A stretch of DNA of 64,000 nucleotides from Verrucomicrobiales bacterium. Its GTDB lineage: Bacteria; Verrucomicrobiota; Verrucomicrobiia; Limisphaerales; J093. Of the stretch, positions 13,189 to 46,164 are shown piece by piece. How positions within the stretch are numbered: position 1 is the stretch's first letter; every line of letters begins with the position of its first letter. Where the stretch lies: the NCBI GenBank assembly GCA_024233305.1, contig JACKPV010000023.1:590789-654788 (forward strand), in the 5' to 3' direction. The notes under the pieces were generated by a model, which saw only the letters and a program-made list of their open reading frames with translations, was not told the origin of the DNA and did not search any database. Both the position numbers and the translations under genes were made by a program.

Positions 13189-13394
13189 GGTGCGGGCTTG
13201 TGTCAGGCTGCGGCGCGAGTCTACCCCGGCCCGGCGGCCGGGGGAACCTCGAAGTGTCCCGAATCCCCCGACGTCGGGTTTGGGAGTCCCGAACGGCTTT
13301 GCCGGCAGCGGGCGGGTCGCGCGACATCGGAGACAGGGATCCGGGGCGAAGTTCCGCTTACGTCCGGCCTGAGTCCGCGGTAAAGATAGCGGGC

Positions 13395-15527: not shown

Positions 15528-15615
15528 GGTGCGCATCTCAGCTCTTTCGGAGCGCGGAATTCATTCCGCAGCAAGGTTGACTCCCGGCGGGGTCTGCGGA
15601 GTGAATTCCGCGCTC

Positions 15616-17571
15616 GTGCGCCTGTGAGGGCGTCCATATTGCGAGGTGAAAGTCCTCGTCAGGCGGTTCATTCACCCGCCTGTGACCGAAGGCTACTGCG
15701 TCGTGGCAACACGGGGTGGAGAGCTGCCGGAGGTGAACCATCGGTCCGTAACGAAGCGAAGTGAGACAACGAAGCCATGTGAACCCGATTCGGCCACGCC
15801 GAGCGGCGAGCCTGCGAGCGCTGTGCGAAGCCCAGGCCATGACCCAAGTGGGAGGACTTCCCTCGGTCGGCACCAGGCGACCGGGTCTTCTGGCTGGCGG
15901 TCCCGGCAGAGGAAGAGTGGATGGAGACAAATGCCCGGACTGGCGCGGTGGGGTGGTTGGGGACGGAACGATGGGAAGCATGGGCGAAGGAAGCAGGGAG
16001 ACCCGTCGGGGAACAGAACGGTGTTCATGGCCGCAAGGTCCGAAGAGCCGCCCGGCGGGAGTCAGAGCGTCCATAGTAGCGAGGAAGCGGGGTAACGCCC
16101 GGGGAGCGAAGGGGCGCAGGGAAGTGGAGACGGAACGACCATGACGAACGACGAACGCCAAGAACGACCGGCGATAGTGTCTGGGGCAACCCAGGCTAAA
16201 CAAGCCGGAGAGGTCCGCGCCCCTGGGTGGTGGATCCAACGTTCGGTATGGACGGACCGGATGCTAACGCGGCTCGCCCAAAGCGGGTCGACAACGGTAT
16301 GGTTCGGACTCTGGGACAAAGTCTGCGCGCTGCGGAACCTGCAGGCCGCTTTCCACGCGGTATGGCGGAACCGGGGTGCTCCCGGAGTGGATGGACAAAC
16401 GGTGCAACAGTTCGACCAACAGGGGACGAGCGAATTGGCCCGCCTGGGGGAAGAATTGCGCACCGGGAGCTACCGCCGCCAACCGGCGCGGCGCGTCTGG
16501 ATCGGGAAAATGGGCACGACCGAGAAGCGACCGCTGGGCATCCCGGCGGTGCGGGACCGGACCGTGGAAGCGGCCTTGCGCAATGTTCTGGAGCCGATCT
16601 TGGAGCGGGACTTTGCCGAGTGCAGCTATGGGTTTCGACCGGGACGTGGCTGTCGGGAAGCGGTGGGAAGGGTGGAAGAGTGGATGAGCCAAGGCTACGT
16701 CTGGTGCGTGGACGCGGACCTCAAGAGCTACTTTGACACCATTCCGCATGAGGGACTGATGGCGTTGGTCAAACAGCGAGTGGTGGATGGCAGGGTCCTG
16801 GCGCTGGTGGAACAATGCCTGAAGGCCGGCGTGCTGGAAACGCTCAAGGGCTGGCAGCCGACCGAACGCGGGACCCCGCAGGGGGCCGTGATCAGTCCGC
16901 TCCTGGCGAACCTGTATCTCAACCCGTTGGACCAGGAGATGGAACGGCGGGGCTGGGCGATGGTGCGCTATGCGGATGATTTGGTGGTGCTGTGCCGGAG
17001 CCGGGAAGCGGCCGAGACGGTGCTGGACTATCTGCGGGAGTGGACCACGGGAGCGGGGCTGACCCTGCACCCGACCAAGACCCGGATAGTGAACGCCACC
17101 GACGAGGGATTCGATTTCCTGGGCTGGCACTTCCGCGGGGGGAAGAAATGGCCGCGGAAGAAGAGCCGCAAGAAGCTGCCGGAGCGGTTGCGACCGCTGA
17201 CGCGACGGACCCACGGGCGAAGCCTGGGGGAAATCATCGCGAAAGTGAACCCGATCCTGCGGGGTTGGCTCGGCTACTTCCGGGACAGTTACCCGACGGG
17301 CCTGAGTGGCCCGGATGGGTGGCTGCGCCGCCGCTTGCGGGCGCTGCTGCGCAAGCGGGAGAAGCGGCCCGGACACGGGCTGAGTGAAGCCGACAGCCGA
17401 CGCTGGCCGAACCGCTGGTTTGCGGCGCAGGGCTTGTTTAGTCTGGAACATGGCTCGCGCGCTTACAGTTAGTCTCGCCGAGACCCCACTGACCGGAGAG
17501 CCGTATGCGGGAAATCCGCCCGTACGGTTCGGAGGGAGGGGTGGCGCTAATCCCGTCATCCCTACCCCTAT
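15616..17571 (+). mobile_element. Group II intron, copy 1 (1956 nt, IIC-like)
   Basis: The 5' end is GTGCGCC and the 3' end is CCCCTAT. Domain V is GAGCCGTATGCGGGAAATCCGCCCGTACGGTTC at 17498..17530 (AGC triad, GAAA loop, bulge), followed by a domain VI-like helix. The ORF sits in domain IV. Confidence 0.9.
16141..17472 (+). CDS. Group II intron reverse transcriptase/maturase (no endonuclease domain)
   Basis: RT motifs present: RRVWIGKMGTTEKRPLGIP, GFRPGRGCREA, DADLKSYFDTIPH, GTPQGAVISPLLANLYL and VRYADDLVVLC (YADD). The maturase X motif is ILRGWLGYFR. The protein is 443 aa and ends shortly after the X domain. Confidence 0.92.
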   Translation: MTNDERQERPAIVSGATQAKQAGEVRAPGWWIQRSVWTDRMLTRLAQSGSTTVWFGLWDKVCALRNLQAAFHAVWRNRGAPGVDGQTVQQFDQQGTSELARLGEELRTGSYRRQPARRVWIGKMGTTEKRPLGIPAVRDRTVEAALRNVLEPILERDFAECSYGFRPGRGCREAVGRVEEWMSQGYVWCVDADLKSYFDTIPHEGLMALVKQRVVDGRVLALVEQCLKAGVLETLKGWQPTERGTPQGAVISPLLANLYLNPLDQEMERRGWAMVRYADDLVVLCRSREAAETVLDYLREWTTGAGLTLHPTKTRIVNATDEGFDFLGWHFRGGKKWPRKKSRKKLPERLRPLTRRTHGRSLGEIIAKVNPILRGWLGYFRDSYPTGLSGPDGWLRRRLRALLRKREKRPGHGLSEADSRRWPNRWFAAQGLFSLEHGSRAYS

Positions 17572-17655: not shown

Positions 17656-20022
17656 TCAGCTCCACCGGGCGCGTTGCGCCGGCAGCCAGCGTTCCAAGAG
17701 GTCCTGGCAGTTGATCGCCTTCTCCCGGAGATCCGCGGGCACGTAGAAGTATTGATTCGAGGCCTCGAAGCCGAGGCGTGAGTCGCGGGTTTGCAGGGCG
17801 TGGAGCCGGACCGCGTCGGCCAGTTCTGCGCGAAGCACGGTTTCGAGTTCGTCCAGCAGCGGAGTCGCGACCGCCTTCGATTCCACGCCAGCCAGGGCGT
17901 TGCGGGCCACCACGAACCGCGCCTGGTGGCCTGTGCTTCGGAAGTGAATTCCCGCCGCTTCCATCACCCGCAGTTCGGCTTCGACGGTGGCCCGCTGCCC
18001 GGAGGTCAGACGTTCCGCCAGGCGCTCGACCTCGGCGCGCAGTCGTTCGCCGGCCTGCGTGAGTCCCTCGGCGACCTTCCTGAACTGCCCGATGAAAACG
18101 TCCGCGGGATACACCTGCCGCCAGGCATCGAGGTCGTCGTACGGGAAACCGACCATCGAAGCGCGGTAACCGGTCGGGCGTTCCCAGAGGAGGTTGGCCG
18201 GGCCGTATTGCATCGGGGCGTTGTAGACCAGGCCGCCGTGGTAGGGGAACTCGCTGAAGGCCTCGCTGCAACGGTTCCAGGCCGCCACCACGGACGGCGC
18301 CACAGCGGGACCGAAGCGACGTTCCGCCACCGCGCGCATCGCCGGTTCCACGGGGTCCGCAGCGGCGTTCGGCGCCTGGGACGCGATTTCGGCGACGACT
18401 TCCAGATTGGGGGATGGGTAGCCGCCGAGGGTCCAACCCAGCATCAAACCGTCCACCCCCTCGGCTTGCAGGTTGGCGGCGTGCCGGGCCACGTTGCGAA
18501 CGGCCGGGATGTAGGGCACGGACGAGAGTTCCCAGGTGTTGCCTGCCTGGATCTTGGCGATGACGCGCAGGCCGCGTTCGCGGGCCACCGCCCAGTGACG
18601 TCGGGCGCGCGGTCCCGGGCCGACCGTTGAAATCGAGTATTCGCCCACCGTGGTCCCTATGCCGCCGCGGTTGATGGGGATGCTCCACTCACTGACGCTC
18701 ATCAGGGAGGCTTCGGACGGCAACTGCCGGATGGCCTCGGGCGCCCAATCGTCCCGCCAGCCCCAGTCCCACGCGATCAACCGCGAGCGTCCCTCCGCCC
18801 GGCGGATGCCGTCGACGATGCAATGGTTGACCTCCGCGATCACGGTGGCGGGCGGGCGCGAGGCGCAACGCGGGCAGTTGGCGCCGGCATGGTGGGACCA
18901 GCAGTTGGTCAGGTTCTCCGAAGCCGTGATGGTAAAGAACCCGGCGAGGTCGGGCACGGCGCGGACGATGGATGCCACCGCATCGCGCAAGTAATCGCGC
19001 ACCGCGGGCACGCTCGTGCACAGCGTCGCGTGGTCCCCCTCGGTCACGCCCCGCAACTCGGGGTGGTCAGCGAAGAAGGCCAGCGGCATGGCGCGGGGTT
19101 CGTTCAGGTAGAGCCAGATGCCCATGCCGTGACGACCGGCGCGTTCGACGAGACGGGCCAGGTTGATGAGCCGTTTCTCGCGTTCCCGGCTCAGCTCGGG
19201 ATTCCAGGGAAAGCGGGCCAGTTGATAGAGCACCCCCTGCAACCACACACCGTCGACGCCCGACGCGGCGAGCCGGGCCAGGAAACCGTCAGGAAAAGGA
19301 TCCGCCTGCGGGTCCAGCAACGGATCACCGTAAAGGGCGAAGTAGGAATAGCAGTAGCGCGGACTCAGCTTCGAAACCGGCCGGGCGGTGGCTGCCGGTT
19401 CCGGTGGCGCACTCAACTGCCGCACGAAGTCGAACAAGGGTTCCGCGGGTTCCTGGTCGACAGCAAAAGTGGCCCGCACCTGCCGGGCGATGGTGGCTTC
19501 ACGCTCGCGGGTGGCGTCGTCGGAAGGTTGGTATCGCACCGGGGCGCAGGCCGGCTTCAGGTTGCCGAGCTTGATATACAGGAAGTCGTCCTCGCGCAGC
19601 GCAAAGGCCAGCTGGTCGGACGTCCACCCGAGCAGGGCCAGCAACTGGTCGTACGGCAGGAGTTGCCAGTTGCGGCGGATGATCGTGATGGCGCTGCGTC
19701 GTTCCTGATCGACGCTGACCGGCGCCGGCGCGCGCAACCCCATGGCTCCGCCGAGGTCGCGGATCGCCTGCGGCGTGGCGCCGACCACCGTGGCCAGCCG
19801 TTCCAGCGGGACGAGATCCCAGTTGCGCCACACGAAGGCGTGGAGGCGCGAAGGGAAATGGGGCAGGGCGACGGGCGCCGGCGCCGAACCGACCGGCAGA
19901 TCGCCGATGGCCAGGGACGCTTGGGGGGCATTGGTGGCGGCGGGAAGATTCGGGCCATCCAGCAGGAACGCGCCGGTGGCGAGACCGGTCGTCTGGAGAA
20001 AACGACGTCGAGAAGGGTGCAT
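17656..20022 (-). CDS. Tat-signal secreted TIM-barrel glycoside-hydrolase-like protein (family unassigned)
   Basis: The internal Met at 20022 gives MHPSRRRFLQTTGLATGAFLL (twin-arginine motif). The body has alternating beta/alpha-like segments (GVDGVWLQGV, GMGIWLYLNEP, FFTITASENLTNCW, LIAWDWGW, VIAKIQAGNTWE, GLMLGWTLGGYPSPN). The fold call was made by eye only. Confidence 0.65.
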   Translation of the reverse strand: MHPSRRRFLQTTGLATGAFLLDGPNLPAATNAPQASLAIGDLPVGSAPAPVALPHFPSRLHAFVWRNWDLVPLERLATVVGATPQAIRDLGGAMGLRAPAPVSVDQERRSAITIIRRNWQLLPYDQLLALLGWTSDQLAFALREDDFLYIKLGNLKPACAPVRYQPSDDATREREATIARQVRATFAVDQEPAEPLFDFVRQLSAPPEPAATARPVSKLSPRYCYSYFALYGDPLLDPQADPFPDGFLARLAASGVDGVWLQGVLYQLARFPWNPELSREREKRLINLARLVERAGRHGMGIWLYLNEPRAMPLAFFADHPELRGVTEGDHATLCTSVPAVRDYLRDAVASIVRAVPDLAGFFTITASENLTNCWSHHAGANCPRCASRPPATVIAEVNHCIVDGIRRAEGRSRLIAWDWGWRDDWAPEAIRQLPSEASLMSVSEWSIPINRGGIGTTVGEYSISTVGPGPRARRHWAVARERGLRVIAKIQAGNTWELSSVPYIPAVRNVARHAANLQAEGVDGLMLGWTLGGYPSPNLEVVAEIASQAPNAAADPVEPAMRAVAERRFGPAVAPSVVAAWNRCSEAFSEFPYHGGLVYNAPMQYGPANLLWERPTGYRASMVGFPYDDLDAWRQVYPADVFIGQFRKVAEGLTQAGERLRAEVERLAERLTSGQRATVEAELRVMEAAGIHFRSTGHQARFVVARNALAGVESKAVATPLLDELETVLRAELADAVRLHALQTRDSRLGFEASNQYFYVPADLREKAINCQDLLERWLPAQRARWS

Positions 20023-20106
20023 GACCACCGAGCTTCCACGGGCGCGGCGCCGCGTCAAGTTCGGGCAGCCGGTGGACGCACGGCGGCGCGCATCCCGGCT
20101 TCTTCG

Positions 20107-22062
20107 ATAGGGGTAGGGATGACGGGATTAGCGCCACCCCTCCCTCCGAACCGTACGGGCGGATTTCCCGCATACGGCTCTCCGGTCAGTGGGGTCTCGG
20201 CGAGACTAACTGTAAGCGCGCGAGCCATGTTCCAGACTAAACAAGCCCTGCGCCGCAAACCAGCGGTTCGGCCAGCGTCGGCTGTCGGCTTCACTCAGCC
20301 CGTGTCCGGGCCGCTTCTCCCGCTTGCGCAGCAGCGCCCGCAAGCGGCGGCGCAGCCACCCATCCGGGCCACTCAGGCCCGTCGGGTAACTGTCCCGGAA
20401 GTAGCCGAGCCAACCCCGCAGGATCGGGTTCACTTTCGCGATGATTTCCCCCAGGCTTCGCCCGTTGGTCCGTCGCGTCAGCGGTCGCAACCGCTCCTGC
20501 AGCTTCTTGCGGCTCTTCTTCCGCGGCCATTTCTTCCCCCCGCGGAAGTGCCAGCCCAGGAAATCGAATCCCTCGTCGGTGGCGTTCACTATCCGGGTCT
20601 TGGTCGGGTGCAGGGTCAGCCCCGCTCCCGTGGTCCACTCCCGCAGATAGTCCAGCACCGTCTCGGCCGCTTCCCGGCTCCGGCACAGCACCACCAAATC
20701 ATCCGCATAGCGCACCATCGCCCAGCCCCGCCGTTCCATCTCCTGGTCCAACGGGTTGAGATACAGGTTCGCCAGGAGCGGACTGATCACGGCCCCCTGC
20801 GGGGTCCCGCGTTCGGTCGGCTGCCAGCCCTTGAGCGTTTCCAGCACGCCGGCCTTCAGGCATTGTTCCACCAGCGCCAGGACCCTGCCATCCACCACTC
20901 GCTGTTTGACCAACGCCATCAGTCCCTCATGCGGAATGGTGTCAAAGTAGCTCTTGAGGTCCGCGTCCACGCACCAGACGTAGCCTTGGCTCATCCACTC
21001 TTCCACCCTTCCCACCGCTTCCCGACAGCCACGTCCCGGTCGAAACCCATAGCTGCACTCGGCAAAGTCCCGCTCCAAGATCGGCTCCAGAACATTGCGC
21101 AAGGCCGCTTCCACGGTCCGGTCCCGCACCGCCGGGATGCCCAGCGGTCGCTTCTCGGTCGTGCCCATTTTCCCGATCCAGACGCGCCGCGCCGGTTGGC
21201 GGCGGTAGCTCCCGGTGCGCAATTCTTCCCCCAGGCGGGCCAATTCGCTCGTCCCCTGTTGGTCGAACTGTTGCACCGTTTGTCCATCCACTCCGGGAGC
21301 ACCCCGGTTCCGCCATACCGCGTGGAAAGCGGCCTGCAGGTTCCGCAGCGCGCAGACTTTGTCCCAGAGTCCGAACCATACCGTTGTCGACCCGCTTTGG
21401 GCGAGCCGCGTTAGCATCCGGTCCGTCCATACCGAACGTTGGATCCACCACCCAGGGGCGCGGACCTCTCCGGCTTGTTTAGCCTGGGTTGCCCCAGACA
21501 CTATCGCCGGTCGTTCTTGGCGTTCGTCGTTCGTCATGGTCGTTCCGTCTCCACTTCCCTGCGCCCCTTCGCTCCCCGGGCGTTACCCCGCTTCCTCGCT
21601 ACTATGGACGCTCTGACTCCCGCCGGGCGGCTCTTCGGACCTTGCGGCCATGAACACCGTTCTGTTCCCCGACGGGTCTCCCTGCTTCCTTCGCCCATGC
21701 TTCCCATCGTTCCGTCCCCAACCACCCCACCGCGCCAGTCCGGGCATTTGTCTCCATCCACTCTTCCTCTGCCGGGACCGCCAGCCAGAAGACCCGGTCG
21801 CCTGGTGCCGACCGAGGGAAGTCCTCCCACTTGGGTCATGGCCTGGGCTTCGCACAGCGCTCGCAGGCTCGCCGCTCGGCGTGGCCGAATCGGGTTCACA
21901 TGGCTTCGTTGTCTCACTTCGCTTCGTTACGGACCGATGGTTCACCTCCGGCAGCTCTCCACCCCGTGTTGCCACGACGCAGTAGCCTTCGGTCACAGGC
22001 GGGTGAATGAACCGCCTGACGAGGACTTTCACCTCGCAATATGGACGCCCTCACAGGCGCAC
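20107..22062 (-). mobile_element. Group II intron, copy 2 (1956 nt) in a decayed MITE
   Basis: Same ends and length as copy 1, on the minus strand. The 5' flank hairpin arm is CTGCGGAATGAATTCCGCGCTC. A degenerate terminus GCGCGCATCCCGG at 20086..20098 matches the MITE end at 10 of 13 positions. Confidence 0.9.
20206..21537 (-). CDS. Group II intron reverse transcriptase/maturase
   Basis: 443 aa. It matches the copy-4 RT except H to N in RRTNGRS. Relative to copy 1 it also has Q for P in KKLQERL. Confidence 0.92.
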   Translation of the reverse strand: MTNDERQERPAIVSGATQAKQAGEVRAPGWWIQRSVWTDRMLTRLAQSGSTTVWFGLWDKVCALRNLQAAFHAVWRNRGAPGVDGQTVQQFDQQGTSELARLGEELRTGSYRRQPARRVWIGKMGTTEKRPLGIPAVRDRTVEAALRNVLEPILERDFAECSYGFRPGRGCREAVGRVEEWMSQGYVWCVDADLKSYFDTIPHEGLMALVKQRVVDGRVLALVEQCLKAGVLETLKGWQPTERGTPQGAVISPLLANLYLNPLDQEMERRGWAMVRYADDLVVLCRSREAAETVLDYLREWTTGAGLTLHPTKTRIVNATDEGFDFLGWHFRGGKKWPRKKSRKKLQERLRPLTRRTNGRSLGEIIAKVNPILRGWLGYFRDSYPTGLSGPDGWLRRRLRALLRKREKRPGHGLSEADSRRWPNRWFAAQGLFSLEHGSRAYS

Positions 22063-22173
22063 GAGCGCGGAATTCATTCCGCAGCAAGCTTGACGGCCGG
22101 TGGGGCCAGCGGAATGAACCCCGTGCACCATTTCCCCAGCCGCCTCGGACTTGTGAAAAGCTGCGCCGTGACC

Positions 22174-22598: not shown

Positions 22599-23162
22599 AT
22601 GAGCGAGGTAACCCGGCTGCTGGATGCCGTGGAACGTGGCGAATCCCAGGCCGCGGAGGAATTGCTGCCGCTCGTATACGGGGAACTGCGCCGCCTGGCA
22701 GCGGTTCGCATGGCTGCCGAGAAGCCCGGCCAGACCCTGCAGGCGACTGCCCTGGTCCACGAAGCGTGGCTGCGGCTTGCCGGCAATGATCACCAACAGT
22801 GGCGCGGGCGAACTCACTTCTTCAGGGCTGCCGCCGAAGCCATGCGGCGGATTCTCATTGATCGCGCGCGGAGTAAGGCAGCCGCCAAACGCGGTGATGC
22901 GGTGCCGCTCGAGGAACTCCACGAAAGCCGCCTCGTGATGCGGGCACCAGAATCGGAGGCCCTCGCCGTGAATGAAGCCTTGGATGAACTCTCCGACACC
23001 GATCCCGTCGCCGCCCAGGTGGTCAAACTGCGCTACTTCGCCGGCATGACGGTCCCGGAGATTGCGCAGGTGCTCGGGGTCTCGGAGCGGACCGTGCATC
23101 GCAATTGGGCGTACGCCCGGTCCTGGTTGAAGGGGGCGATTCGTGACGGCGAAACGGTCTGA
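22599..23162 (+). CDS. ECF-type sigma-70 family factor, TIGR02999-like (the kinase-associated ECF group)
   Basis: The N-terminus MSEVTRLLDAVERGESQAAEELLPLVYGELRRLAAVRMAAEKPGQTLQATALVHEAWLRL is the characteristic start of this family. The region 4 HTH is MTVPEIAQVLGVSERTVHRNWAYARSWL. A Ser/Thr kinase lies immediately downstream. Confidence 0.85.
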   Translation: MSEVTRLLDAVERGESQAAEELLPLVYGELRRLAAVRMAAEKPGQTLQATALVHEAWLRLAGNDHQQWRGRTHFFRAAAEAMRRILIDRARSKAAAKRGDAVPLEELHESRLVMRAPESEALAVNEALDELSDTDPVAAQVVKLRYFAGMTVPEIAQVLGVSERTVHRNWAYARSWLKGAIRDGETV

Positions 23163-23273
23163 GGGCGCTTCGCGATTTGAGGCGCCGGGAGCGCCCCGGA
23201 CAGAATTTTGAAATTCCGTGTCAGGGTTTGGCCCCGGATTACGCCATTCCCTCATGAACGGACCGTGTCAGCG

Positions 23274-24406
23274 ATGAACGCCGAAGCCAAAGCCAGCGAT
23301 TGTCCCGAGCGCGACATCTTCTTCGAAGCCATCGAAAAGGCATCGGAGGAAGAGCGCGCGGCGTACGTCGAGGTGGCCTGCGGCGAGGATGCGGCCCTGC
23401 GTCGGCGCGTCGAGGTCCTGCTGACCGACCATTCCGAGGACGACGAGTTCATGCGGACCCCGGTCGCGGAGATTGTGGCCCTGGATACACCCAACGCGGC
23501 AACACTGGAACAACCCGGCACCCTGATCGGCCGCTACCGGCTACTGGAACCACTCGGCGAAGGCGGGTTCGGCGTGGTCCATCTGGCGGACCAACAGGAG
23601 CCGATCCGCCGCCAGGTCGCCCTGAAGATCATCAAGCTGGGCATGGACACCCGGCAGGTCATCGCCCGCTTCGAGGCCGAGCGGCAGGCCCTGGCGATGA
23701 TGGACCATCCCAACATCGCCAAGGTGCTCGATGCCGGGGTCACGGAGACTGGACGTCCCTACTTCGTCATGGAACGGGTCCGGGGCATTCCGATCACGCG
23801 GTTCTGCGAGGAAAACCGACTCTCGATCGAGGGACGCCTCGAACTCCTCATCCCCGTCTGCCACGCCATCCAGCATGCCCACCAGAAGGTGATCATTCAC
23901 CGGGACATCAAGCCCTCGAACGTCCTGGTCACGGGCAGTCCCGATGGTTCGGGCCACCCGATGGTGATCGACTTCGGAGTCGCCAAGGCCATCGAGGAAC
24001 CGCTTACCGACAAGCCGCTCCACACCAGCCTGCTCCAGATGATCGGCACGCCGGCTTACATGAGCCCCGAGCAGGCCGAGCGGGGACCGGGCGGCGTCAG
24101 CGATGTGGACACCCGCAGCGACGTCTATTCGCTGGGCATCCTGCTTTATGAACTCCTCACCGGCACCACGCCTTTTCCCGAGGAACGGCTGCGAGAAGCC
24201 GGGTTCGCCGAGATTCAACGGATCCTCAGCCAGGAGGAACCGCAGCAGCCGTCCGCCCGCCTTGCGGAAATCCAGGGGAGCACACGCGCCCCCGCGTGTC
24301 CCCGACCGGCGCCCCCGCCGGTTGGCTCTGGAAAGGGGGCTGGGGCCGGAAGTGAAAACGGATTCGACGGGGGCGTCGAATCCTGCACGCGAGGGCGCGT
24401 GCGCTC
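23274..24406 (+). CDS. Ser/Thr protein kinase, exon 1 (interrupted by group II intron copy 3)
   Basis: Hanks kinase motifs present: GEGGFGVVHLA, VALKIIK, IIHRDIKPSNVLV, DFGVAKA, GTPAYMSPEQ and DVYSLGILLYELLTG. The ORF-track tail beyond 24406 reads into the intron. Confidence 0.85.
24278..24406 (+). repeat. 129-nt hairpin cluster inside the kinase ORF, immediately 5' of intron copy 3
   Basis: Four local hairpins with C4 or G-rich tetraloops: 24282..24299 (ACACGCG-CCCC-CGCGTGT), 24305..24322 (ACCGGCG-CCCC-CGCCGGT), 24360..24383 (GGATTCGACG-GGGG-CGTCGAATCC) and 24385..24402 (GCACGCG-AGGG-CGCGTGC). The outer 21 nt are also mutually complementary, with 2 mismatches. Confidence 0.7.
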
Positions 24407-26362
24407 GTGCGCCTGTGAGGGCGTCCATATTGCGAGGTGAAAGTCCTCGTCAGGCGGTTCATTCACCCGCCTGTGACCGAAGGCTACTGCGTCGTGGCAA
24501 CACGGGGTGGAGAGCTGCCGGAGGTGAACCATCGGTCCGTAACGAAGCGAAGTGAGACAACGAAGCCATGTGAACCCGATTCGGCCACGCCGAGCGGCGA
24601 GCCTGCGAGCGCTGTGCGAAGCCCAGGCCATGACCCAAGTGGGAGGACTTCCCTCGGTCGGCACCAGGCGACCGGGTCTTCTGGCTGGCGGTCCCGGCAG
24701 AGGAAGAGTGGATGGAGACAAATGCCCGGACTGGCGCGGTGGGGTGGTTGGGGACGGAACGATGGGAAGCATGGGCGAAGGAAGCAGGGAGACCCGTCGG
24801 GGAACAGAACGGTGTTCATGGCCGCAAGGTCCGAAGAGCCGCCCGGCGGGAGTCAGAGCGTCCATAGTAGCGAGGAAGCGGGGTAACGCCCGGGGAGCGA
24901 AGGGGCGCAGGGAAGTGGAGACGGAACGACCATGACGAACGACGAACGCCAAGAACGACCGGCGATAGTGTCTGGGGCAACCCAGGCTAAACAAGCCGGA
25001 GAGGTCCGCGCCCCTGGGTGGTGGATCCAACGTTCGGTATGGACGGACCGGATGCTAACGCGGCTCGCCCAAAGCGGGCCGACAACGGTATGGTTCGGAC
25101 TCTGGGACAAAGTCTGCGCGCTGCGGAACCTGCAGGCCGCTTTCCACGCGGTATGGCGGAACCGGGGTGCTCCCGGAGTGGATGGACAAACGGTGCAACA
25201 GTTCGACCAACAGGGGACGAGCGAATTGGCCCGCCTGGGGGAAGAATTGCGCACCGGGAGCTACCGCCGCCAACCGGCGCGGCGCGTCTGGATCGGGAAA
25301 ATGGGCACGACCGAGAAGCGACCGCTGGGCATCCCGGCGGTGCGGGACCGGACCGTGGAAGCGGCCTTGCGCAATGTTCTGGAGCCGATCTTGGAGCGGG
25401 ACTTTGCCGAGTGCAGCTATGGGTTTCGACCGGGACGTGGCTGTCGGGAAGCGGTGGGAAGGGTGGAAGAGTGGATGAGCCAAGGCTACGTCTGGTGCGT
25501 GGACGCGGACCTCAAGAGCTACTTTGACACCATTCCGCATGAGGGACTGATGGCGTTGGTCAAACAGCGAGTGGTGGATGGCAGGGTCCTGGCGCTGGTG
25601 GAACAATGCCTGAAGGCCGGCGTGCTGGAAACGCTCAAGGGCTGGCAGCCGACCGAACGCGGGACCCCGCAGGGGGCCGTGATCAGTCCGCTCCTGGCGA
25701 ACCTGTATCTCAACCCGTTGGACCAGGAGATGGAACGGCGGGGCTGGGCGATGGTGCGCTATGCGGATGATTTGGTGGTGCTGTGCCGGAGCCGGGAAGC
25801 GGCCGAGACGGTGCTGGACTATCTGCGGGAGTGGACCACGGGAGCGGGGCTGACCCTGCACCCGACCAAGACCCGGATAGTGAACGCCACCGACGAGGGA
25901 TTCGATTTCCTGGGCTGGCACTTCCGCGGGGGGAAGAAATGGCCGCGGAAGAAGAGCCGCAAGAAGCTGCAGGAGCGGTTGCGACCGCTGACGCGACGGA
26001 CCCACGGGCGAAGCCTGGGGGAAATCATCGCGAAAGTGAACCCGATCCTGCGGGGTTGGCTCGGCTACTTCCGGGACAGTTACCCGACGGGCCTGAGTGG
26101 CCCGGATGGGTGGCTGCGCCGCCGCTTGCGGGCGCTGCTGCGCAAGCGGGAGAAGCGGCCCGGACACGGGCTGAGTGAAGCCGACAGCCGACGCTGGCCG
26201 AACCGCTGGTTTGCGGCGCAGGGCTTGTTTAGTCTGGAACATGGCTCGCGCGCTTACAGTTAGTCTCGCCGAGACCCCACTGACCGGAGAGCCGTATGCG
26301 GGAAATCCGCCCGTACGGTTCGGAGGGAGGGGTGGCGCTAATCCCGTCATCCCTACCCCTAT
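24407..26362 (+). mobile_element. Group II intron, copy 3 (1956 nt), inside the kinase ORF in sense orientation
   Basis: Same GTGCGCC...CCCCTAT ends and length as the other copies, anchored by conserved internal ORF offsets. Confidence 0.9.
24932..26263 (+). CDS. Group II intron reverse transcriptase/maturase
   Basis: 443 aa. It matches the copy-4 RT except S to P in LAQSGPTTVW. Confidence 0.92.
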   Translation: MTNDERQERPAIVSGATQAKQAGEVRAPGWWIQRSVWTDRMLTRLAQSGPTTVWFGLWDKVCALRNLQAAFHAVWRNRGAPGVDGQTVQQFDQQGTSELARLGEELRTGSYRRQPARRVWIGKMGTTEKRPLGIPAVRDRTVEAALRNVLEPILERDFAECSYGFRPGRGCREAVGRVEEWMSQGYVWCVDADLKSYFDTIPHEGLMALVKQRVVDGRVLALVEQCLKAGVLETLKGWQPTERGTPQGAVISPLLANLYLNPLDQEMERRGWAMVRYADDLVVLCRSREAAETVLDYLREWTTGAGLTLHPTKTRIVNATDEGFDFLGWHFRGGKKWPRKKSRKKLQERLRPLTRRTHGRSLGEIIAKVNPILRGWLGYFRDSYPTGLSGPDGWLRRRLRALLRKREKRPGHGLSEADSRRWPNRWFAAQGLFSLEHGSRAYS

Positions 26363-28136
26363 CCCGGAGGATGTCACGCTCGGTTTCAAGGTTCCCACCG
26401 ACCTCGACTGGATCGTGCTCAAGGCCATCGACAAGGACCGCAACCGCCGCTACGTCACCCCCAACGAACTGGCCGATGACCTCAGGCGTTTCCTCAAGAA
26501 CGAGCCCATCCTCGCCCGTCCTATCAGCCAGACCGCCAGAGTGTGGCGCTGGTGCCGACGTCACACGGCGGTCGCAGCCCTGACTGCCGGCTTGGTCCTG
26601 GCGCTGATCGCCGGCTTTGGCGGTACTCTCTGGCAGTTGCAGCGGGCGGAACAAAATGCTGCCGAGAACCTCCGCCAAGTCGCCCGGTTGAACGTCCTCA
26701 CCGGCGTCAACCTCCTGCAGGAAGGCGACTCCTTCAAGAGCCTGCTCTGGTTCGCCGAAGCCCTGGCGCTGAAGGCCGGGCCGCCCGAACGCGACGTCGT
26801 GGATCGGCTCCGCATCGCTTCCATCATCGCGCAAGGGCCGCGACTCGCCGCCGTCATCACCCACGACGGCCAACCCGTTGCCGACGCCGCCTTTCATTCC
26901 ACGAAGGATCAACTCGCCACCGTGGGACGCGACCGTCGCCTGCGCCTCTGGGACCTTGCCACCGTCGAGACAGTGTTCCTGACCGAACCCTTTGCCGAAC
27001 GTCCTTCCGAGGTCCTCTTCTCACCCGACGGCGAAGTGATCCTGGTGGGCAGCTCCGAGTTCAACCAGGTGCGCATGATCTCCGCGTTGGATGGCAAGCC
27101 GCTGAGCAACACCATCCCTCACTTTGCCGGCGGGGCGAACAACCGCCCGCTGCCACCACGCTTCGATGCTTTAGGTGAACGCCTTCTCACCCAAAGCGCA
27201 CCGAAAACACTTCGAGTCTGGGCTGTGCGCGACGGCTCCCCGCTCGGCCCGTCGATCCCGCTCGGCGCCCCGGTCGCGTGGACGGGCTTCAGCGAACATG
27301 GCACGCAAGTTCGGACGGTCACTCAGGACGGGAAGGCGACGACTTGGGATTGGCGAAGTGGAAGCCGGATATCGAACCCAGAACCCCGAACGCTGAATAT
27401 CGAAGGCGAGCCCAACTTCGACGTTGGACGTTCAGTGTTCGACATTCGAAGTTCGACTTCAGTCCGCAGCCCCGACGGCTCCCGCTACGCCACCCTTGCC
27501 GCCGATCACCGCGTGCGTGTCTGGGACTCGGGAACCGACGAACCGCTCACACCTCCCATCGACCATTTCACGGCGTCCGGCCCCGTCGGTTTCAGCGCCA
27601 ATGGCCGGTTCTTCTTCACGATGCACCCGGCCCATGCGGTGTACGTTTGGGAACTTCCGGAGAATACCGAACCGCCAGTCCTGCTCCGGCCCGAGGCCCC
27701 GAACACTCTGGCGGAGACTGGCCGGGACGGTTCGGTCATTGTGACCCGTGATCCGGGCAGCCCGATTCGCGTGCGGGCCCTGTCGGGTACCCAGGAAGTG
27801 TCCCTCCATCCCGCCAGCCTGAAGGAAGTTCCCGTGCAGGCATGGTTCGATGACACCGGCCAGTTCATCATCCTCGAATACCCGAACCAGCGTGCTCAGG
27901 TCTGGGATGCCACCTCCGGTCTGCCTGTCACTCCCGTGTTCCGGAGCCGCTACGCCACCAATGAAGCCGCCTACCGGACGATCCAGTTTCCTGATTTCCC
28001 ATCTGACACTCGCCACTCGCCGCCGCAGGCCCTGGCCGAACTCCTCTCCGGCAGCCGCCTCGACGGCACCGGCGGTTGGAAGCCGCTCGAACTGGGCGAC
28101 ATCCTCGCGCGCTGGAATGCTGTCAATCGCGAATAG
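26363..28136 (+). CDS. Ser/Thr protein kinase, exon 2 (juxtamembrane segment, TM helix, WD40-like beta-propeller)
   Basis: It resumes with PEDVTLGFKVPTDLDWIVLKAIDKDRNRRYVTPNELADDLRRFL, the typical post-catalytic segment of PVC kinases. It continues with the TM helix AVAALTAGLVLALIAGFGGTLW and WD-like repeats (RLRLWDLAT, TLRVWAV, HRVRVWDSGT, AVYVWEL, RAQVWDATS). Confidence 0.85.
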
Positions 28137-28174
28137 CTCCCTACTTCGAACTCAGTTCAACCCATCCCGTGACC

Positions 28175-30439
28175 ATGAAGACTCGAAACACTGACCCGAC
28201 CCGCTCCGCTTTCTTAACCTCCGCCTCCTTGGCCCTGCTGATTGGGCTGACCAGGATGGCTGCTCCAATGGCTCACGCCCAGGACTTGGACCTCCGGGTG
28301 GTCGGAGGATACGACACCGGCGGCGCAGTTTATGATGTGGTCATGGCAGGCAACCATGCCTACGTGGCCACCAGTTCAGGGCTGCAGGTGATCGACATGA
28401 GCGAACCGAGCGATCCACGGCAGGAGGGAATCTGCAGCACAATCGGTCATGCTTGGGGCGTCGTGATCTCCGGCAGTTACGCCTTTGTTGCCTGCCTGGA
28501 AGGTGGCTTGCAGGTGGTCGACATCAGCAACCCCGCCATCCCCCAGAGGGTGGGGGGCTACATTACCGGCGGCTTCTCCAGGAGCGTGGCAGTCTCCGGC
28601 AACCATGCGTTCGTGGCGGTTGAAGATTCAGATCTGCAGGTGCTCGATATCAGTGACCCCTTAAATCCGCAGAGAGTCGGCGGCTACGGCGTTTCTTCGG
28701 GCGCAATCGCAGTGTCCGGAAACCATGCATACGTGCTGACAGTTGGTTCTGAACTGCAGGTGCTCGACATCAGCAACCCCGCAAATCCACGCCGGGTGAG
28801 CATCATGGGCGGTGTGGAGGGATCTCTCGCGATTCAGGGCGAACATGCTTACGTCGCCGGTTCTTTACAGGATGGCGAGGGAATGCACGCAGGTCTGAAG
28901 GTCATTGACATCAGCGCCCCGGCCAATCCGCATGAGGTGGGCCGGTACAATGCCTCTGGCTATGATGTGCATGATGTGTTCGTTTCCGGCAATCATGCAT
29001 ACCTGACGGAAAACGCGGCCAACCCTGCAAGCCGCCTGATTGTGGTTGACGTCAGTGACTCAGGCAACCCGCGACAGGTGGGCAGTTACGACACAGACTT
29101 CGGCTTTTACGGCGCGGACGTTGCTGTATCCGGGAATTATGCCTATGTGGCAAGTGGTCGTGAGCAGTCCAGTCATCAGGTCATCGATATCAGCGATCCG
29201 ACCAGCCCGCGAGGAGTAGGCAGCTATCAAACATCCACCTCGCTCGATTTGGCGGTCGCCGGTGACCATGCCTACGTGACAACTTGGTCTGGTCTCCAAG
29301 TGTTCGACATCAGCCATCCCGCCAGTCCGCAGCCGGTGGGTGCTTATGACACGAGTTCGGACACTCACGAGTGGTTTACGCGTCGCGTGGCAGTCTCGGG
29401 CAACTACGCCTGCGTGGCCGAAACGTGGTGGGACCAGGGTCAAAGCTACACAGACCAACAAGGCCGCCTTGAGGTAATTGACGTGAAGGACCCGGCAAAC
29501 CCACGGCGGGTGGGTGGCTACGACACGAGCGGGGGTGCCCGTGCCGTGGCGATGTCGGGCAGCCATGCGTACGTAGCGGAGACTTGGTATGATCAGGAGG
29601 CGCAGACATCCAAAGGCCTGGTCGAGGTCATCGACCTCAGCGACCCGGCAAACCTACGCCTTGTCAGCCGTTACGAGACGAAAGGAGCAGCCAACGACGT
29701 TACGGTTGCGGGAACCTACGCCTACGTTGCCGGCGGGCGTTTTGACGAGACCGCGGGCCATCACCAAGATGGTTTGACGATTCTTGACATCAGCAATCCG
29801 GCCAATCTCCAGCGGGTGGGCAGCTACGACCTCGCCGGTCTTGCCATCGGCGTGACTGTTTCCGGGGAACATGCCTACACAACCGACATTTGGGAGGGCC
29901 TGCGAGTGCTCGACGTTAGCGACCCCACCAACCCGTCGCTAGTGGGCGGATCGCAGGCCCCGGTTGGCTACGTGGGCTACCCCGCGATCTCCGGTGAAAT
30001 CGTCTTCGTGGGGGCGCCGAATGTTCTGGCGTTCGATATCAGTGACCCGGCCAATCCCCGGCAATCGGGAATCTCGGACCTCATCGGCCCAGTCTGGGGG
30101 GACTCTGATGAGCGGCGGCACGATGGGCATGTGGCGGTTTCTGGCGGCTATGCCTACGTGGCGGGGATTACTGCCGGTCTCAAAGTAATCGAAATCAGTC
30201 CAGCCACCGAACTCCGCATCGGCCCGGCAATGATGGAGGCGGATGGGAGCATTCGGCTGCCGGTCAACGGGAAGTGCGGCCAGCGTGTCCGACTGCAGCG
30301 GAGCGACAACTTGGTCGATTGGGAGGACTGGCAGACCATGATCCTGGGTGGCGACGGCTGCGGCCTCATCGACACCACCACCGCCACGCCAGCCCGCTTC
30401 TACCGCGCGGTCAACGACATCACCCCGGCAGCCGATTAG
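28175..30439 (+). CDS. LVIVD-repeat beta-propeller protein, secreted, with an FYR-ending C-terminal module
   Basis: About 14 repeats of G(N/S/D)(H/Y)A(Y/F)VA....L(Q/K)V(I/L/F/V)D(I/V/M)S.P..P. The signal-like N-terminus is MKTRNTDPTRSAFLTSASLALLIGLTRMAAPMAHA. The C-terminus is ARFYRAVNDITPAAD. Confidence 0.8.
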   Translation: MKTRNTDPTRSAFLTSASLALLIGLTRMAAPMAHAQDLDLRVVGGYDTGGAVYDVVMAGNHAYVATSSGLQVIDMSEPSDPRQEGICSTIGHAWGVVISGSYAFVACLEGGLQVVDISNPAIPQRVGGYITGGFSRSVAVSGNHAFVAVEDSDLQVLDISDPLNPQRVGGYGVSSGAIAVSGNHAYVLTVGSELQVLDISNPANPRRVSIMGGVEGSLAIQGEHAYVAGSLQDGEGMHAGLKVIDISAPANPHEVGRYNASGYDVHDVFVSGNHAYLTENAANPASRLIVVDVSDSGNPRQVGSYDTDFGFYGADVAVSGNYAYVASGREQSSHQVIDISDPTSPRGVGSYQTSTSLDLAVAGDHAYVTTWSGLQVFDISHPASPQPVGAYDTSSDTHEWFTRRVAVSGNYACVAETWWDQGQSYTDQQGRLEVIDVKDPANPRRVGGYDTSGGARAVAMSGSHAYVAETWYDQEAQTSKGLVEVIDLSDPANLRLVSRYETKGAANDVTVAGTYAYVAGGRFDETAGHHQDGLTILDISNPANLQRVGSYDLAGLAIGVTVSGEHAYTTDIWEGLRVLDVSDPTNPSLVGGSQAPVGYVGYPAISGEIVFVGAPNVLAFDISDPANPRQSGISDLIGPVWGDSDERRHDGHVAVSGGYAYVAGITAGLKVIEISPATELRIGPAMMEADGSIRLPVNGKCGQRVRLQRSDNLVDWEDWQTMILGGDGCGLIDTTTATPARFYRAVNDITPAAD

Positions 30440-42676: not shown

Positions 42677-43015
42677 ACACCCCACACCCTGGACCGCATC
42701 CCCTCCCGCCAAAAACCTGAGATGCGCACGTCTGTGGCCGGCGGTCTGGTGGTTGAAGAATCTGACAGATTAGAAGTTGATGACACGGCTTCCATGGCGT
42801 TCTCTTCCGAGGATTCCTCCAAAACCCCTTCTTCCTTCTTCGGGATACGCTTCTCGGGCGGCGCGCCGATCCTCATGTTCCAAAGAGTCGCGACAAAAGT
42901 GAAAGTGCGCATCTCAGTGTTTTCCGACTCCGTGCGGCCCGAAGAGTCGGAGCGCGGAATTCATTCCGCAGACCCCGCCGGGAGTCAACCTTGCTGCGGA
43001 GTGAATTCCGCGCTC

Positions 43016-44971
43016 GTGCGCCTGTGAGGGCGTCCATATTGCGAGGTGAAAGTCCTCGTCAGGCGGTTCATTCACCCGCCTGTGACCGAAGGCTACTGCG
43101 TCGTGGCAACACGGGGTGGAGAGCTGCCGGAGGTGAACCATCGGTCCGTAACGAAGCGAAGTGAGACAACGAAGCCATGTGAACCCGATTCGGCCACGCC
43201 GAGCGGCGAGCCTGCGAGCGCTGTGCGAAGCCCAGGCCATGACCCAAGTGGGAGGACTTCCCTCGGTCGGCACCAGGCGACCGGGTCTTCTGGCTGGCGG
43301 TCCCGGCAGAGGAAGAGTGGATGGAGACAAATGCCCGGACTGGCGCGGTGGGGTGGTTGGGGACGGAACGATGGGAAGCATGGGCGAAGGAAGCAGGGAG
43401 ACCCGTCGGGGAACAGAACGGTGTTCATGGCCGCAAGGTCCGAAGAGCCGCCCGGCGGGAGTCAGAGCGTCCATAGTAGCGAGGAAGCGGGGTAACGCCC
43501 GGGGAGCGAAGGGGCGCAGGGAAGTGGAGACGGAACGACCATGACGAACGACGAACGCCAAGAACGACCGGCGATAGTGTCTGGGGCAACCCAGGCTAAA
43601 CAAGCCGGAGAGGTCCGCGCCCCTGGGTGGTGGATCCAACGTTCGGTATGGACGGACCGGATGCTAACACGGCTCGCCCAAAGCGGGTCGACAACGGTAT
43701 GGTTCGGACTCTGGGACAAAGTCTGCGCGCTGCGGAACCTGCAGGCCGCTTTCCACGCGGTATGGCGGAACCGGGGTGCTCCCGGAGTGGATGGACAAAC
43801 GGTGCAACAGTTCGACCAACAGGGGACGAGCGAATTGGCCCGCCTGGGGGAAGAATTGCGCACCGGGAGCTACCGCCGCCAACCGGCGCGGCGCGTCTGG
43901 ATCGGGAAAATGGGCACGACCGAGAAGCGACCGCTGGGCATCCCGGCGGTGCGGGACCGGACCGTGGAAGCGGCCTTGCGCAATGTTCTGGAGCCGATCT
44001 TGGAGCGGGACTTTGCCGAGTGCAGCTATGGGTTTCGACCGGGACGTGGCTGTCGGGAAGCGGTGGGAAGGGTGGAAGAGTGGATGAGCCAAGGCTACGT
44101 CTGGTGCGTGGACGCGGACCTCAAGAGCTACTTTGACACCATTCCGCATGAGGGACTGATGGCGTTGGTCAAACAGCGAGTGGTGGATGGCAGGGTCCTG
44201 GCGCTGGTGGAACAATGCCTGAAGGCCGGCGTGCTGGAAACGCTCAAGGGCTGGCAGCCGACCGAACGCGGGACCCCGCAGGGGGCCGTGATCAGTCCGC
44301 TCCTGGCGAACCTGTATCTCAACCCGTTGGACCAGGAGATGGAACGGCGGGGCTGGGCGATGGTGCGCTATGCGGATGATTTGGTGGTGCTGTGCCGGAG
44401 CCGGGAAGCGGCCGAGACGGTGCTGGACTATCTGCGGGAGTGGACCACGGGAGCGGGGCTGACCCTGCACCCGACCAAGACCCGGATAGTGAACGCCACC
44501 GACGAGGGATTCGATTTCCTGGGCTGGCACTTCCGCGGGGGGAAGAAATGGCCGCGGAAGAAGAGCCGCAAGAAGCTGCAGGAGCGGTTGCGACCGCTGA
44601 CGCGACGGACCCACGGGCGAAGCCTGGGGGAAATCATCGCGAAAGTGAACCCGATCCTGCGGGGTTGGCTCGGCTACTTCCGGGACAGTTACCCGACGGG
44701 CCTGAGTGGCCCGGATGGGTGGCTGCGCCGCCGCTTGCGGGCGCTGCTGCGCAAGCGGGAGAAGCGGCCCGGACACGGGCTGAGTGAAGCCGACAGCCGA
44801 CGCTGGCCGAACCGCTGGTTTGCGGCGCAGGGCTTGTTTAGTCTGGAACATGGCTCGCGCGCTTACAGTTAGTCTCGCCGAGACCCCACTGACCGGAGAG
44901 CCGTATGCGGGAAATCCGCCCGTACGGTTCGGAGGGAGGGGTGGCGCTAATCCCGTCATCCCTACCCCTAT
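43016..44971 (+). mobile_element. Group II intron, copy 4 (1956 nt)
   Basis: Same ends and length as the other copies. It is inserted after the hairpin at 42950..43015. Confidence 0.9.
43541..44872 (+). CDS. Group II intron reverse transcriptase/maturase
   Basis: 443 aa. This is the apparent consensus of the four copies. It has one synonymous difference near 43670 (ACA versus ACG). Confidence 0.92.
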   Translation: MTNDERQERPAIVSGATQAKQAGEVRAPGWWIQRSVWTDRMLTRLAQSGSTTVWFGLWDKVCALRNLQAAFHAVWRNRGAPGVDGQTVQQFDQQGTSELARLGEELRTGSYRRQPARRVWIGKMGTTEKRPLGIPAVRDRTVEAALRNVLEPILERDFAECSYGFRPGRGCREAVGRVEEWMSQGYVWCVDADLKSYFDTIPHEGLMALVKQRVVDGRVLALVEQCLKAGVLETLKGWQPTERGTPQGAVISPLLANLYLNPLDQEMERRGWAMVRYADDLVVLCRSREAAETVLDYLREWTTGAGLTLHPTKTRIVNATDEGFDFLGWHFRGGKKWPRKKSRKKLQERLRPLTRRTHGRSLGEIIAKVNPILRGWLGYFRDSYPTGLSGPDGWLRRRLRALLRKREKRPGHGLSEADSRRWPNRWFAAQGLFSLEHGSRAYS

Positions 44972-46103: not shown

Positions 46104-46164
46104 CCCACGGCATCGACGGGACGCAAGCTGGACCGCAAAACGAACGCCCACTCTCTGCAATCGC

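Follow-up and report, generated by a model that had tools for sequence, protein, structure and literature searches.

How does a mobile intron of a class that keeps mostly to the gaps between genes come to lie in the middle of a signaling gene, and what might follow for the protein that it interrupts? The question is raised by a 64,000-nucleotide (nt) stretch of a Verrucomicrobiales bacterium (contig JACKPV010000023.1, positions 590,789 to 654,788), hereafter the window. It carries four near-identical copies of a group II intron, one of which (copy C) splits the gene for a Hanks-type Ser/Thr kinase that stands next to a gene for an extracytoplasmic function (ECF) sigma factor. Class C (IIC) introns are the most abundant group II introns of bacteria, and they are held to owe their success to a place behind terminators, where they leave genes unbroken and are little transcribed. 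Our analysis points with good confidence to an active IIC intron that very recently retrotransposed into an intact gene for an ECF43-partner kinase, at a palindrome mimicking its usual target. The features on which this reading turns are:

22599..23162, plus strand: ECF sigma factor gene, 187 amino acids (aa); TIGR02999 (2e-62), PF07638 (6e-59)
23274..24406, plus strand: kinase exon 1, N-terminal region and Hanks subdomains I-X; Pkinase (7.6e-39)
24278..24406, plus strand: in-frame palindromic insert with multiple hairpins, in the alphaH-alphaI linker; from DNA folding and comparison with homologues
24384..24403, plus strand: local target hairpin, TGCACGCG-AGGG-CGCGTGCG, then CTC; the modal architecture of the intron clade's targets
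24401..24406, plus strand: intron-binding site 1 (IBS1), GCGCTC, complementary to exon-binding site 1 (EBS1); common to the four copies and covarying with EBS1
24407..26362, plus strand: group II intron copy C, class C, 1956 nt, 5' GUGCG...CUAU 3'
24438..24440, plus strand: TGA closing the unspliced exon 1 frame, 11 codons into the intron
24607..24612, plus strand: EBS1, GAGCGC, in intron domain I (intron positions 201-206); six covarying pairs
24932..26263, plus strand: intron-encoded protein (IEP), 443 aa, reverse transcriptase (RT) and maturase (X) domains; RVT_1, GIIM, TIGR04416
26287..26362, plus strand: intron domains V and VI (D5 and D6), bulged A 8 nt from the 3' end; RF00029
26363..28136, plus strand: kinase exon 2, with subdomain XI (DLDWIVLKAIDKDRNRRY...ADDLRRFL), transmembrane (TM) helix and WD40-type beta-propeller sensor
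about 26565-26651, plus strand: the TM helix in exon 2
28076-30439, plus strand: LVIVD-repeat propeller open reading frame (ORF) downstream of the kinase; LVIVD match 4.5e-113

The borders of copy C, 24407 and 26362, are fixed by four lines of evidence. First, when the four copies are aligned, they have in common outside the 1956-nt unit only CGCTC upstream and a C downstream. Second, the D5/D6 model RF00029 is matched four times in the window, each time in full (1-77 of 77) and at 57.6 bits (gathering threshold 40), with ends at 17571 (plus), 20107 (minus), 26362 (plus) and 44971 (plus), the third being exactly the last base of copy C. Third, an alignment of domain I from relatives of the intron displays covariation between IBS1 and EBS1 in six variants (CGCTC/GAGCG, CACTC/GAGTG, CGCCC/GGGCG, CGGTC/GACCG, GCTCC/GGAGC and CCTAC/GTAGG), which fixes the 5' splice site at 24406/24407 independently. 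Fourth, the uninterrupted kinase genes of two other loci, L001 and L002, read ...GCGCGTGCGCTC followed directly by CCC... across the insertion point, an equivalent of the empty site that is identical to the predicted ligated exons. At the junctions themselves, exon 1 ends in ...GGC GCG TGC GCT C at 24406 and the intron begins with GTGCGCC at 24407; it ends in ...CCCCTAT at 26362, and exon 2 opens with C CCG GAG GAT at 26363, where the initial C is IBS3, a position that is C in nearly all copies of the clade. The terminal GTGCG and CTAT and the bulged A in D6 fit a group II intron. Splicing is predicted to give the ligated exons ...GCGTGCGCTC/CCCGGAGGATG, and the predicted junction at the empty site of the kinase gene is GCGCGTGCGCTCCCCGGAGGATGTCAC.

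Joining 24406 to 26363 gives the codon TC/C (Ser) in a 2973-nt ORF with zero internal stops. It unites the plus-strand ORF 23208/23274-24440, the N-terminal part of a Hanks-type kinase, with the ORF 26175-28136, which holds in the same frame the remaining kinase domain, the TM helix and the WD40-type propeller. The kinase ATG at 23274 (an alternative start is TTG at 23208) lies 111 nt from the sigma factor gene, and the spliced ORF of 968 aa is colinear with two homologues, P0002 and P0003. An initial annotation, made from the DNA alone, had placed the junction at the same two bases, and its coordinates, TC/C codon and open frame are correct. It had also leaned on the restored frame; the frame is indeed restored, but this is weak evidence because any precise excision restores it (1956 = 3 x 652), and residue-by-residue colinearity with uninterrupted homologues supports the junction instead. 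The same annotation had described a sense-oriented class C intron inside an otherwise intact sigma-linked kinase ORF, with a TIGR02999-type sigma gene upstream on the same strand, and this stands, as do the TM helix and WD40/beta-propeller domains of exon 2, which were recovered by domain searches and in an AlphaFold2 model.

Is the split gene one gene? A protein search with the spliced product retrieved the full-length, contiguous kinases P0002 (56% identity) and P0003 (54%), along with P0019 and P0023, which match at 68-70% over the kinase domain only; in alignment the query runs colinearly across the junction with all four. Over the first part of exon 2, identity is 72% to P0002 and 65% to P0003, with other homologues reaching at most about 52% over shorter alignments, and we identify P0002 and P0003 from their sequences as the orthologues of the split kinase. 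In L085, the locus of P0002, the kinase gene has a PF07638 sigma gene ahead of it and an LVIVD-repeat gene behind it, a layout identical to that of the window, and in L084 (the locus of P0003), L001 and L002 a single kinase gene likewise comes directly after a sigma gene. Since P0002 and P0003 are single contiguous genes beside the same sigma type, the halves do not normally exist as genes of their own, an outcome that had been named at the outset as one that would undo the split-gene view.

A further homologue exposes a different problem. P0001, from an NCBI Verrucomicrobiales metagenome-assembled genome (MAG; locus tag H7A46_25350), is 590 aa long, 100% identical and annotated as a "hypothetical protein, partial"; its first residue falls exactly where exon 2 begins. 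That assembly evidently broke at the intron repeat, which leaves the interrupted kinase invisible there. An independent assembly broken at exactly this point, four repeat copies at least 99.8% identical, and an exon 1 whose identity is slightly higher with the P0019 family (70%) than with P0002 (65%) beside a clearly P0002-like exon 2 could all be read as marks of an assembly chimera, in which exons from different kinase genes were joined through the 2-kb repeat. We regard this as very unlikely: both flanks are syntenic with the single locus L085, from the sigma gene upstream to the LVIVD-repeat gene downstream, the join is in frame and colinear at residue level within the alphaH-alphaI linker, copy-specific single-nucleotide differences are resolved in the window, and a chimera presupposes another kinase gene, likewise split by an intron at the homologous codon.

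What kind of intron is it? The IEP matches RVT_1 (2.5e-40), GIIM (2.2e-14) and TIGR04416 (379 bits, cut-off 300) and bears a YADD motif; the domain search gave no match to an HNH/En (endonuclease) domain. Its best solved matches are the class C RTs GsI-IIC (6ar1, 1.4e-64) and the E. rectale maturase (7uim, 1.7e-63), with 5hhl and 5hhj also among them, whereas representatives of other classes score lower (IIB 6me0, 9e-48; IIA LtrA, 5g2x, 1e-37). The closest solved RTs, the missing En domain and a target made of a hairpin and a short IBS1 thus assign the intron to class C, an assignment based on RT similarity ranking, domain content and target type. The ribozyme outside the ORF, about 620 nt, is compatible with this class; a permissive Rfam scan of 23100-26500 returned for domains I to IV only a weak, sub-threshold match to RF02003 (E = 0.62). 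Full-length relatives of the IEP occur in other Verrucomicrobiota MAGs (scanned at one genome per species), and their intron borders agree with those in the window. Exact look-ups of the copy C IEP and of P0001 matched no record, and that of the copy B IEP found a single collapsed 1977-nt Logan contig only.

Why, then, does a class C intron sit inside an ORF? Introns of this class are described as inserting after terminators or other inverted repeats and as sparing coding sequences (PMC7306698, PMC8919778, PMC4424553, PMC1702495), as the initial annotation had also held (with which PMC7306698 and PMC8919778 agree), and their targets are recognized through a stem-loop and a short IBS1 (PMC7161350, PMC1702495). 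The cause of the intron's position, which that annotation had missed, appears from the sequence to be a palindrome within the ORF that mimics the normal target: the known class C rule is satisfied here by DNA that is translated, and the intron consequently lies in a gene. Residues 335-378 of the kinase (GSTRAPACPRPAPPPVGSGKGAGAGSENGFDGGVESCTRGRVRS) form a low-complexity loop without counterpart in most homologues, and the DNA concerned (24278-24406, about 130 nt) is a compound palindrome (-49.2 kcal/mol, z = -4.4) whose outer stem has its 3' base at 24406, the last base of exon 1. Within it, the site immediately ahead of the intron, with an 8-bp stem, a 4-nt loop and a 3-nt spacer, copies almost perfectly the motif that this clade recognizes and falls in the modal class of the clade. 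That class was defined from a census of 50 distinct insertion sites (4 in the window and 46 in JGI metagenome contigs). A hairpin ends 0-8 nt ahead of the intron at 50/50 sites, and at least 34/50 have the modal form (stem of at least 6 bp, loop of 3-5 nt, spacer of 2-5 nt; typically ...GCGGAC-TGAA-GTCCGC-GCTC before the intron), against a background of 3.6% among 20,000 random window positions. The window holds 79 GCGCTC hexamers, nine of which follow a modal hairpin; six of these nine have a C or an intron next, and introns occupy four of these six.

The insert itself is rare, being found in only 2/120 homologues (P0019 and P0023). Measured from motif to motif, the alphaH-alphaI linker spans a median of 31 aa (107 homologues), compared with 61-62 aa for both P0019 and P0023 and some 63 aa for the query. 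Kinase genes with the insert, both uninterrupted, lie at 4001-7504 of L001 and 3001-6507 of L002, and their insert DNA is 84% identical to that of the window, compared with 72-75% elsewhere in the kinase domain. Exact-pattern scans of genome and metagenome contigs for the in-ORF palindrome found nothing, neither an empty-site allele of the same gene nor insert-bearing loci beyond L001 and L002, and the permissive Rfam scan of 23100-26500 had no match for the insert. We considered vertical inheritance of the insert; the closest orthologues, P0002 and P0003, are without it and the paralogous family of P0019 and P0023 has it. It may have arisen from a mobile element or through gene conversion, or its distribution may reflect loss. 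The same linker carries unrelated insertions, 15-40 aa long, in P0005, P0029, P0053, P0069, P0078, P0108 and P0110, some of them of low complexity (e.g., ...GEGRGEGDLPSPPGRGAGGEG...), and these sequences suggest that the alphaH-alphaI loop is a hot spot tolerant of inserted DNA.

Hence, we propose the following course of events. An in-frame palindromic insert in the alphaH-alphaI linker would have offered a stem-loop, an IBS1 of 5-6 nt and a 1-nt IBS3, and a class C intron would have retrotransposed after its GCGCTC and ahead of the C. From then on, full-length kinase would arise only from transcripts from which the intron is precisely spliced, and unspliced messenger RNA would give a truncated kinase, leaving the sigma factor, which would need Thr phosphorylation, switched off.

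The last two steps depend on what each exon contributes. Exon 1 encodes the motifs GEGGFGVV, VALK, HRDIKPSN, DFG and SPE, and the Pfam Pkinase match in it covers profile positions 1-220 of 263 only. The best solved relative of the kinase domain, 9eed (1.1e-52), aligns onward through exon 2 residues to ADDLRRFL, and a 45-sequence alignment places the invariant columns L392, D393, W394, K402, R407, Y408, D417 and A429 in exon 2. In the AlphaFold2 model (mean predicted local distance difference test score, pLDDT, 73), the palindrome-encoded residues 338-385 have a block-mean below 50, the exon 2 helices 390-399 and 411-422 have block-means of 89-97, and helix 446-474 is the membrane anchor. A complete Hanks core is present only in the spliced product, with subdomains I-X from exon 1 and XI from exon 2. 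Alignments and model thus both locate the intron inside the catalytic domain, ahead of subdomain XI, and the Pkinase coverage, 9eed, the exon 2 invariants and the model contradict the earlier suggestion that the unspliced product would be a soluble catalytic domain. Read-through into the intron meets a stop after 11 codons (24438-24440). In Hanks kinases, the Arg of subdomain XI pairs with the Glu of the APE motif; because the unspliced product would lack this Arg, it is expected to be unstable or inactive, and is probably an inactive, C-terminally truncated kinase.

The adjacent sigma factor carries in its sigma2.2 region the motif LQATALVHEAW, in which QATA has a Thr at the position of that in the ECF43 consensus QTTA. 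In ECF43 proteins a Thr replaces the acidic DxxD motif of sigma2.2, with QTTA as the phospho-Thr consensus, and EcfP and EcfK become active when their partner kinases phosphorylate that Thr (PMC13147305). By analogy, it is a fair inference that the activity of the sigma factor in the window would need the spliced kinase.

Whether the intron is likely to be spliced can be approached through its other copies in the window:

15616..17571, plus strand: intron copy A, after a 66-nt palindrome at 15550-15615
20107..22062, minus strand: intron copy B, after a palindrome at 22063-22128 (minus strand)
43016..44971, plus strand: intron copy D, after a palindrome at 42950-43015

The palindrome of copies A and D is perfect, 66 nt long (GAGCGCGGAATTC...GAATTCCGCGCTC), and that of copy B is an imperfect version. 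The four copies lie within 30 kb and vary at 4/1956 positions (654, 673, 1565 and 1597; at least 99.8% identity), and their IEPs are all intact, which suggests that the burst was recent and the intron active. At 4/4 variable positions copy C has the outgroup base (from the relatives in L004, L005 and L086), whereas copies A, B and D have in common a derived T at 673, plus one private change each; T673 changes IEP residue 50, a Pro in nearly all relatives, to Ser. On these grounds copy C is the inferred ancestor of the burst and its least-mutated member. It is also the sole copy in the window inside a gene in sense orientation, the other three being intergenic. Poor transcription is expected of copies after hairpins (PMC8919778), and the sequence evidence fits, though it does not prove, a role for copy C as the transcribed donor.

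Around copies A, B and D we made some further observations. Copies A and B point toward each other across a 2.5-kb segment with one 800-aa ORF (17656-20058, minus strand), which recombination between them could invert. The palindromes of A, B and D sit in a longer repeat resembling miniature inverted-repeat transposable elements (MITEs) or repetitive extragenic palindromes (REPs), with about 45 nt more on each side and in both orientations; its inverted ends resemble GTGCGCATCTCAGCTTTTTCG, 3/3 units in the window bear an intron on one side, and on the opposite strand the target sites, at 15550 and 42950, are unoccupied. The 66-nt palindrome (5'-arm 16-mer GGAATTCATTCCGCAG) had zero exact matches in 83 fetched loci.

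Copy C should, to judge from its sequence, be splicing-competent because it keeps the 5'-exon stem-loop, the perfect 6-bp EBS1-IBS1 pairing, IBS3, D5 and D6 with the branch-point A, and the IEP, and also because it is the least-mutated copy of a recent burst. The contrary possibility is insertional inactivation, in which a dispensable sigma/kinase pair was hit, splicing is unproductive and the kinase gene is a very young, as yet undecayed pseudogene. The copies differ by no more than 1-2 substitutions, leaving no time for decay; the lineage has many paralogous kinases of the same architecture (8000 matches); IIC introns are described as rarely transcribed and as avoiding coding sequence (PMC8919778, PMC7306698); and host mRNA is lowered by introns, the IIC intron BhI1 included, even when splicing occurs (PMC6003770). 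All the cis elements for splicing are intact, however, exactly as in the recently mobilized copies, the sense orientation, transcribed context and ancestral state of copy C fit a donor role, and a relative of the intron (in L004, see below) likewise lies in sense within a conserved ORF, so that we hold inactivation to be unlikely, if worth keeping in view.

Several points do weigh against a productively spliced insertion. Next to the firmly established borders, class and target logic of the intron, the intact exons and the uninterrupted orthologues, the splicing of copy C itself is a prediction from sequence. IIC ribozymes without their IEP splice poorly or hydrolytically and may use cryptic 5' sites (PMC7161350, PMC1702495), and ribosomes reading 11 codons into the intron may disturb its folding. 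In so young an insertion (0-1 substitution), intact exons are uninformative about selection. EBS3 has no unique assignment, with three candidate columns fitting the few variant IBS3 bases, and the source of the DNA is a MAG. With all this considered, the net effect of the insertion is most likely a lowered expression of the kinase instead of an evolved regulatory switch.

A switch of the latter kind would be a domesticated intron whose splicing, perhaps with an alternative in-frame 5' site, gates the kinase and hence the sigma factor. The ECF43 Thr motif makes the sigma factor probably kinase-dependent (PMC13147305), and the insert contains a candidate cryptic 5' site at 24306-24328, comprising the hairpin CCGGCG-CCCC-CGCCGG and then TTGGCTC, with a 4-bp EBS1 match; IIC introns can use such sites in vitro (PMC1702495). 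The stem-loop and GGCTC end at 24328, 78 nt (26 codons, in the same phase) upstream of the real 5' splice site, and use of this site could remove most of the palindrome-encoded loop in frame. Yet the insertion is evolutionarily instantaneous, and the orthologues as well as the insert-bearing homologues are without the intron, so the arrangement is not conserved. Domestication is very improbable on this evidence.

Is the kinase gene a solitary case? In L004 (CAZHUS010000102.1 of the MAG CAZHUS01), a relative of the intron with 89% nucleotide identity lies at 1976-3931, in sense, inside a large, conserved helicase ORF of plasmid type with 658 aa ahead of the junction and 152 aa after it. Across this junction, a 215-aa segment matches without a break proteins annotated as DEAD/DEAH or helicase-related in 554 plasmid records, and the insertion site has GCGCTC with a weak hairpin. 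The other relatives examined are apparently intergenic; further long ORFs spanning junctions look, when their translations are judged by eye, like spurious high-GC frames, and only L004 held up. From the kinase and helicase cases, class C introns within ORFs would seem to be under-reported, and the breaking of assemblies and annotation at intron repeats, as in P0001, would be part of the reason. A separate kind of target is seen in L110 (at about 816) and L161 (at about 216), where introns are in tandem and the 5' end GTGCGCCT abuts the 3' end ...CCCTACCCCTAT of another copy; from the sequence, domain VI of the resident intron apparently served as the target hairpin.

Neighbors typical of Verrucomicrobiota in the window are a gene for an HZS_alpha and FGE-sulfatase protein (46015-50013, plus strand), a sulfatase gene (11443-13725, minus strand) and the LVIVD-repeat propeller gene (28076-30439, plus strand). 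FGE-sulfatase genes follow the P0019 and P0023 kinase genes, and the surroundings of the P0003 locus include an HZS_alpha/FGE-sulfatase gene.

Set against known systems, the mechanism is familiar and only the intron's address is unusual. Like B.h.I1, GsI-IIC, Ta.it.I1 and E.r.I1, it combines a small ribozyme (about 620 nt of non-ORF sequence) with an En-less IEP, occurs in many near-identical copies, and inserts directly 3' of a stem-loop with a short IBS1 and a 1-nt IBS3. It differs from them in that copy C and its L004 relative lie in sense inside coding sequence and not after a terminator, that the stem-loops are GC-rich palindromes without a T-run, and that the EBS1-IBS1 pairing reaches 5-6 bp. 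With the IIC-attC introns and those inserted at REP-like repeats it has in common the use of inverted repeats other than terminators, copies A, B and D lying behind the 66-nt palindrome, but the palindrome of copy C forms part of a translated kinase sequence.

Introns inside bacterial ORFs have precedents in other classes, namely Ll.LtrB in the ltrB relaxase gene and the introns of recA, RIR/dnaN and groEL (PMC12584367, PMC6003770). There, too, the host protein needs precise splicing and the intron is in sense with its own IEP, and these introns, like copy C, are expected to reduce expression of the host gene (PMC6003770, PMC12584367). Unlike copy C, they are IIA or IIB introns with long, sequence-specific homing sites (IBS1 and IBS2), several of them conserved at their site; the site of copy C was chosen by structural mimicry, and its insertion is conserved in no relative. 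We rejected C.te.I1 as a IIC precedent, as its paper likens the ribozyme to mitochondrial IIB1 introns and never mentions IIC. On the side of the host, the closest parallels are EcfP/PknT of V. parahaemolyticus and EcfK/PknS of X. citri, which likewise pair a TIGR02999/PF07638 sigma factor bearing a sigma2.2 Thr with a transmembrane Hanks kinase; the accession 9eed appears in the PknS paper (PMC13147305). The kinase in the window differs from these in its intron, its translated palindromic insert and its WD40-type propeller sensor.

It is conceivable, if improbable, that the kinase copy is the transcribed master of the burst and that the host relies on IIC splicing for its ECF43-activating kinase, with a second isoform or a landing-pad element as further possibilities. 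The locus would then be a natural case of a signal-transduction output gated by a class C intron, the cryptic site at 24328 could give another form of the kinase from which most of the palindrome-encoded loop is missing, and the translated palindrome might itself be mobile or gene-converted, creating landing pads for introns within genes. Beyond such scenarios, the locus is a clean natural counter-example to the sparing of genes by class C introns, indicating that structure-based targeting reaches coding sequence when a suitable palindrome is present there. The affected gene product should be needed to activate the neighboring sigma factor, and the locus thereby allows one to ask whether IIC splicing in vivo is accurate enough for the expression of a host protein.

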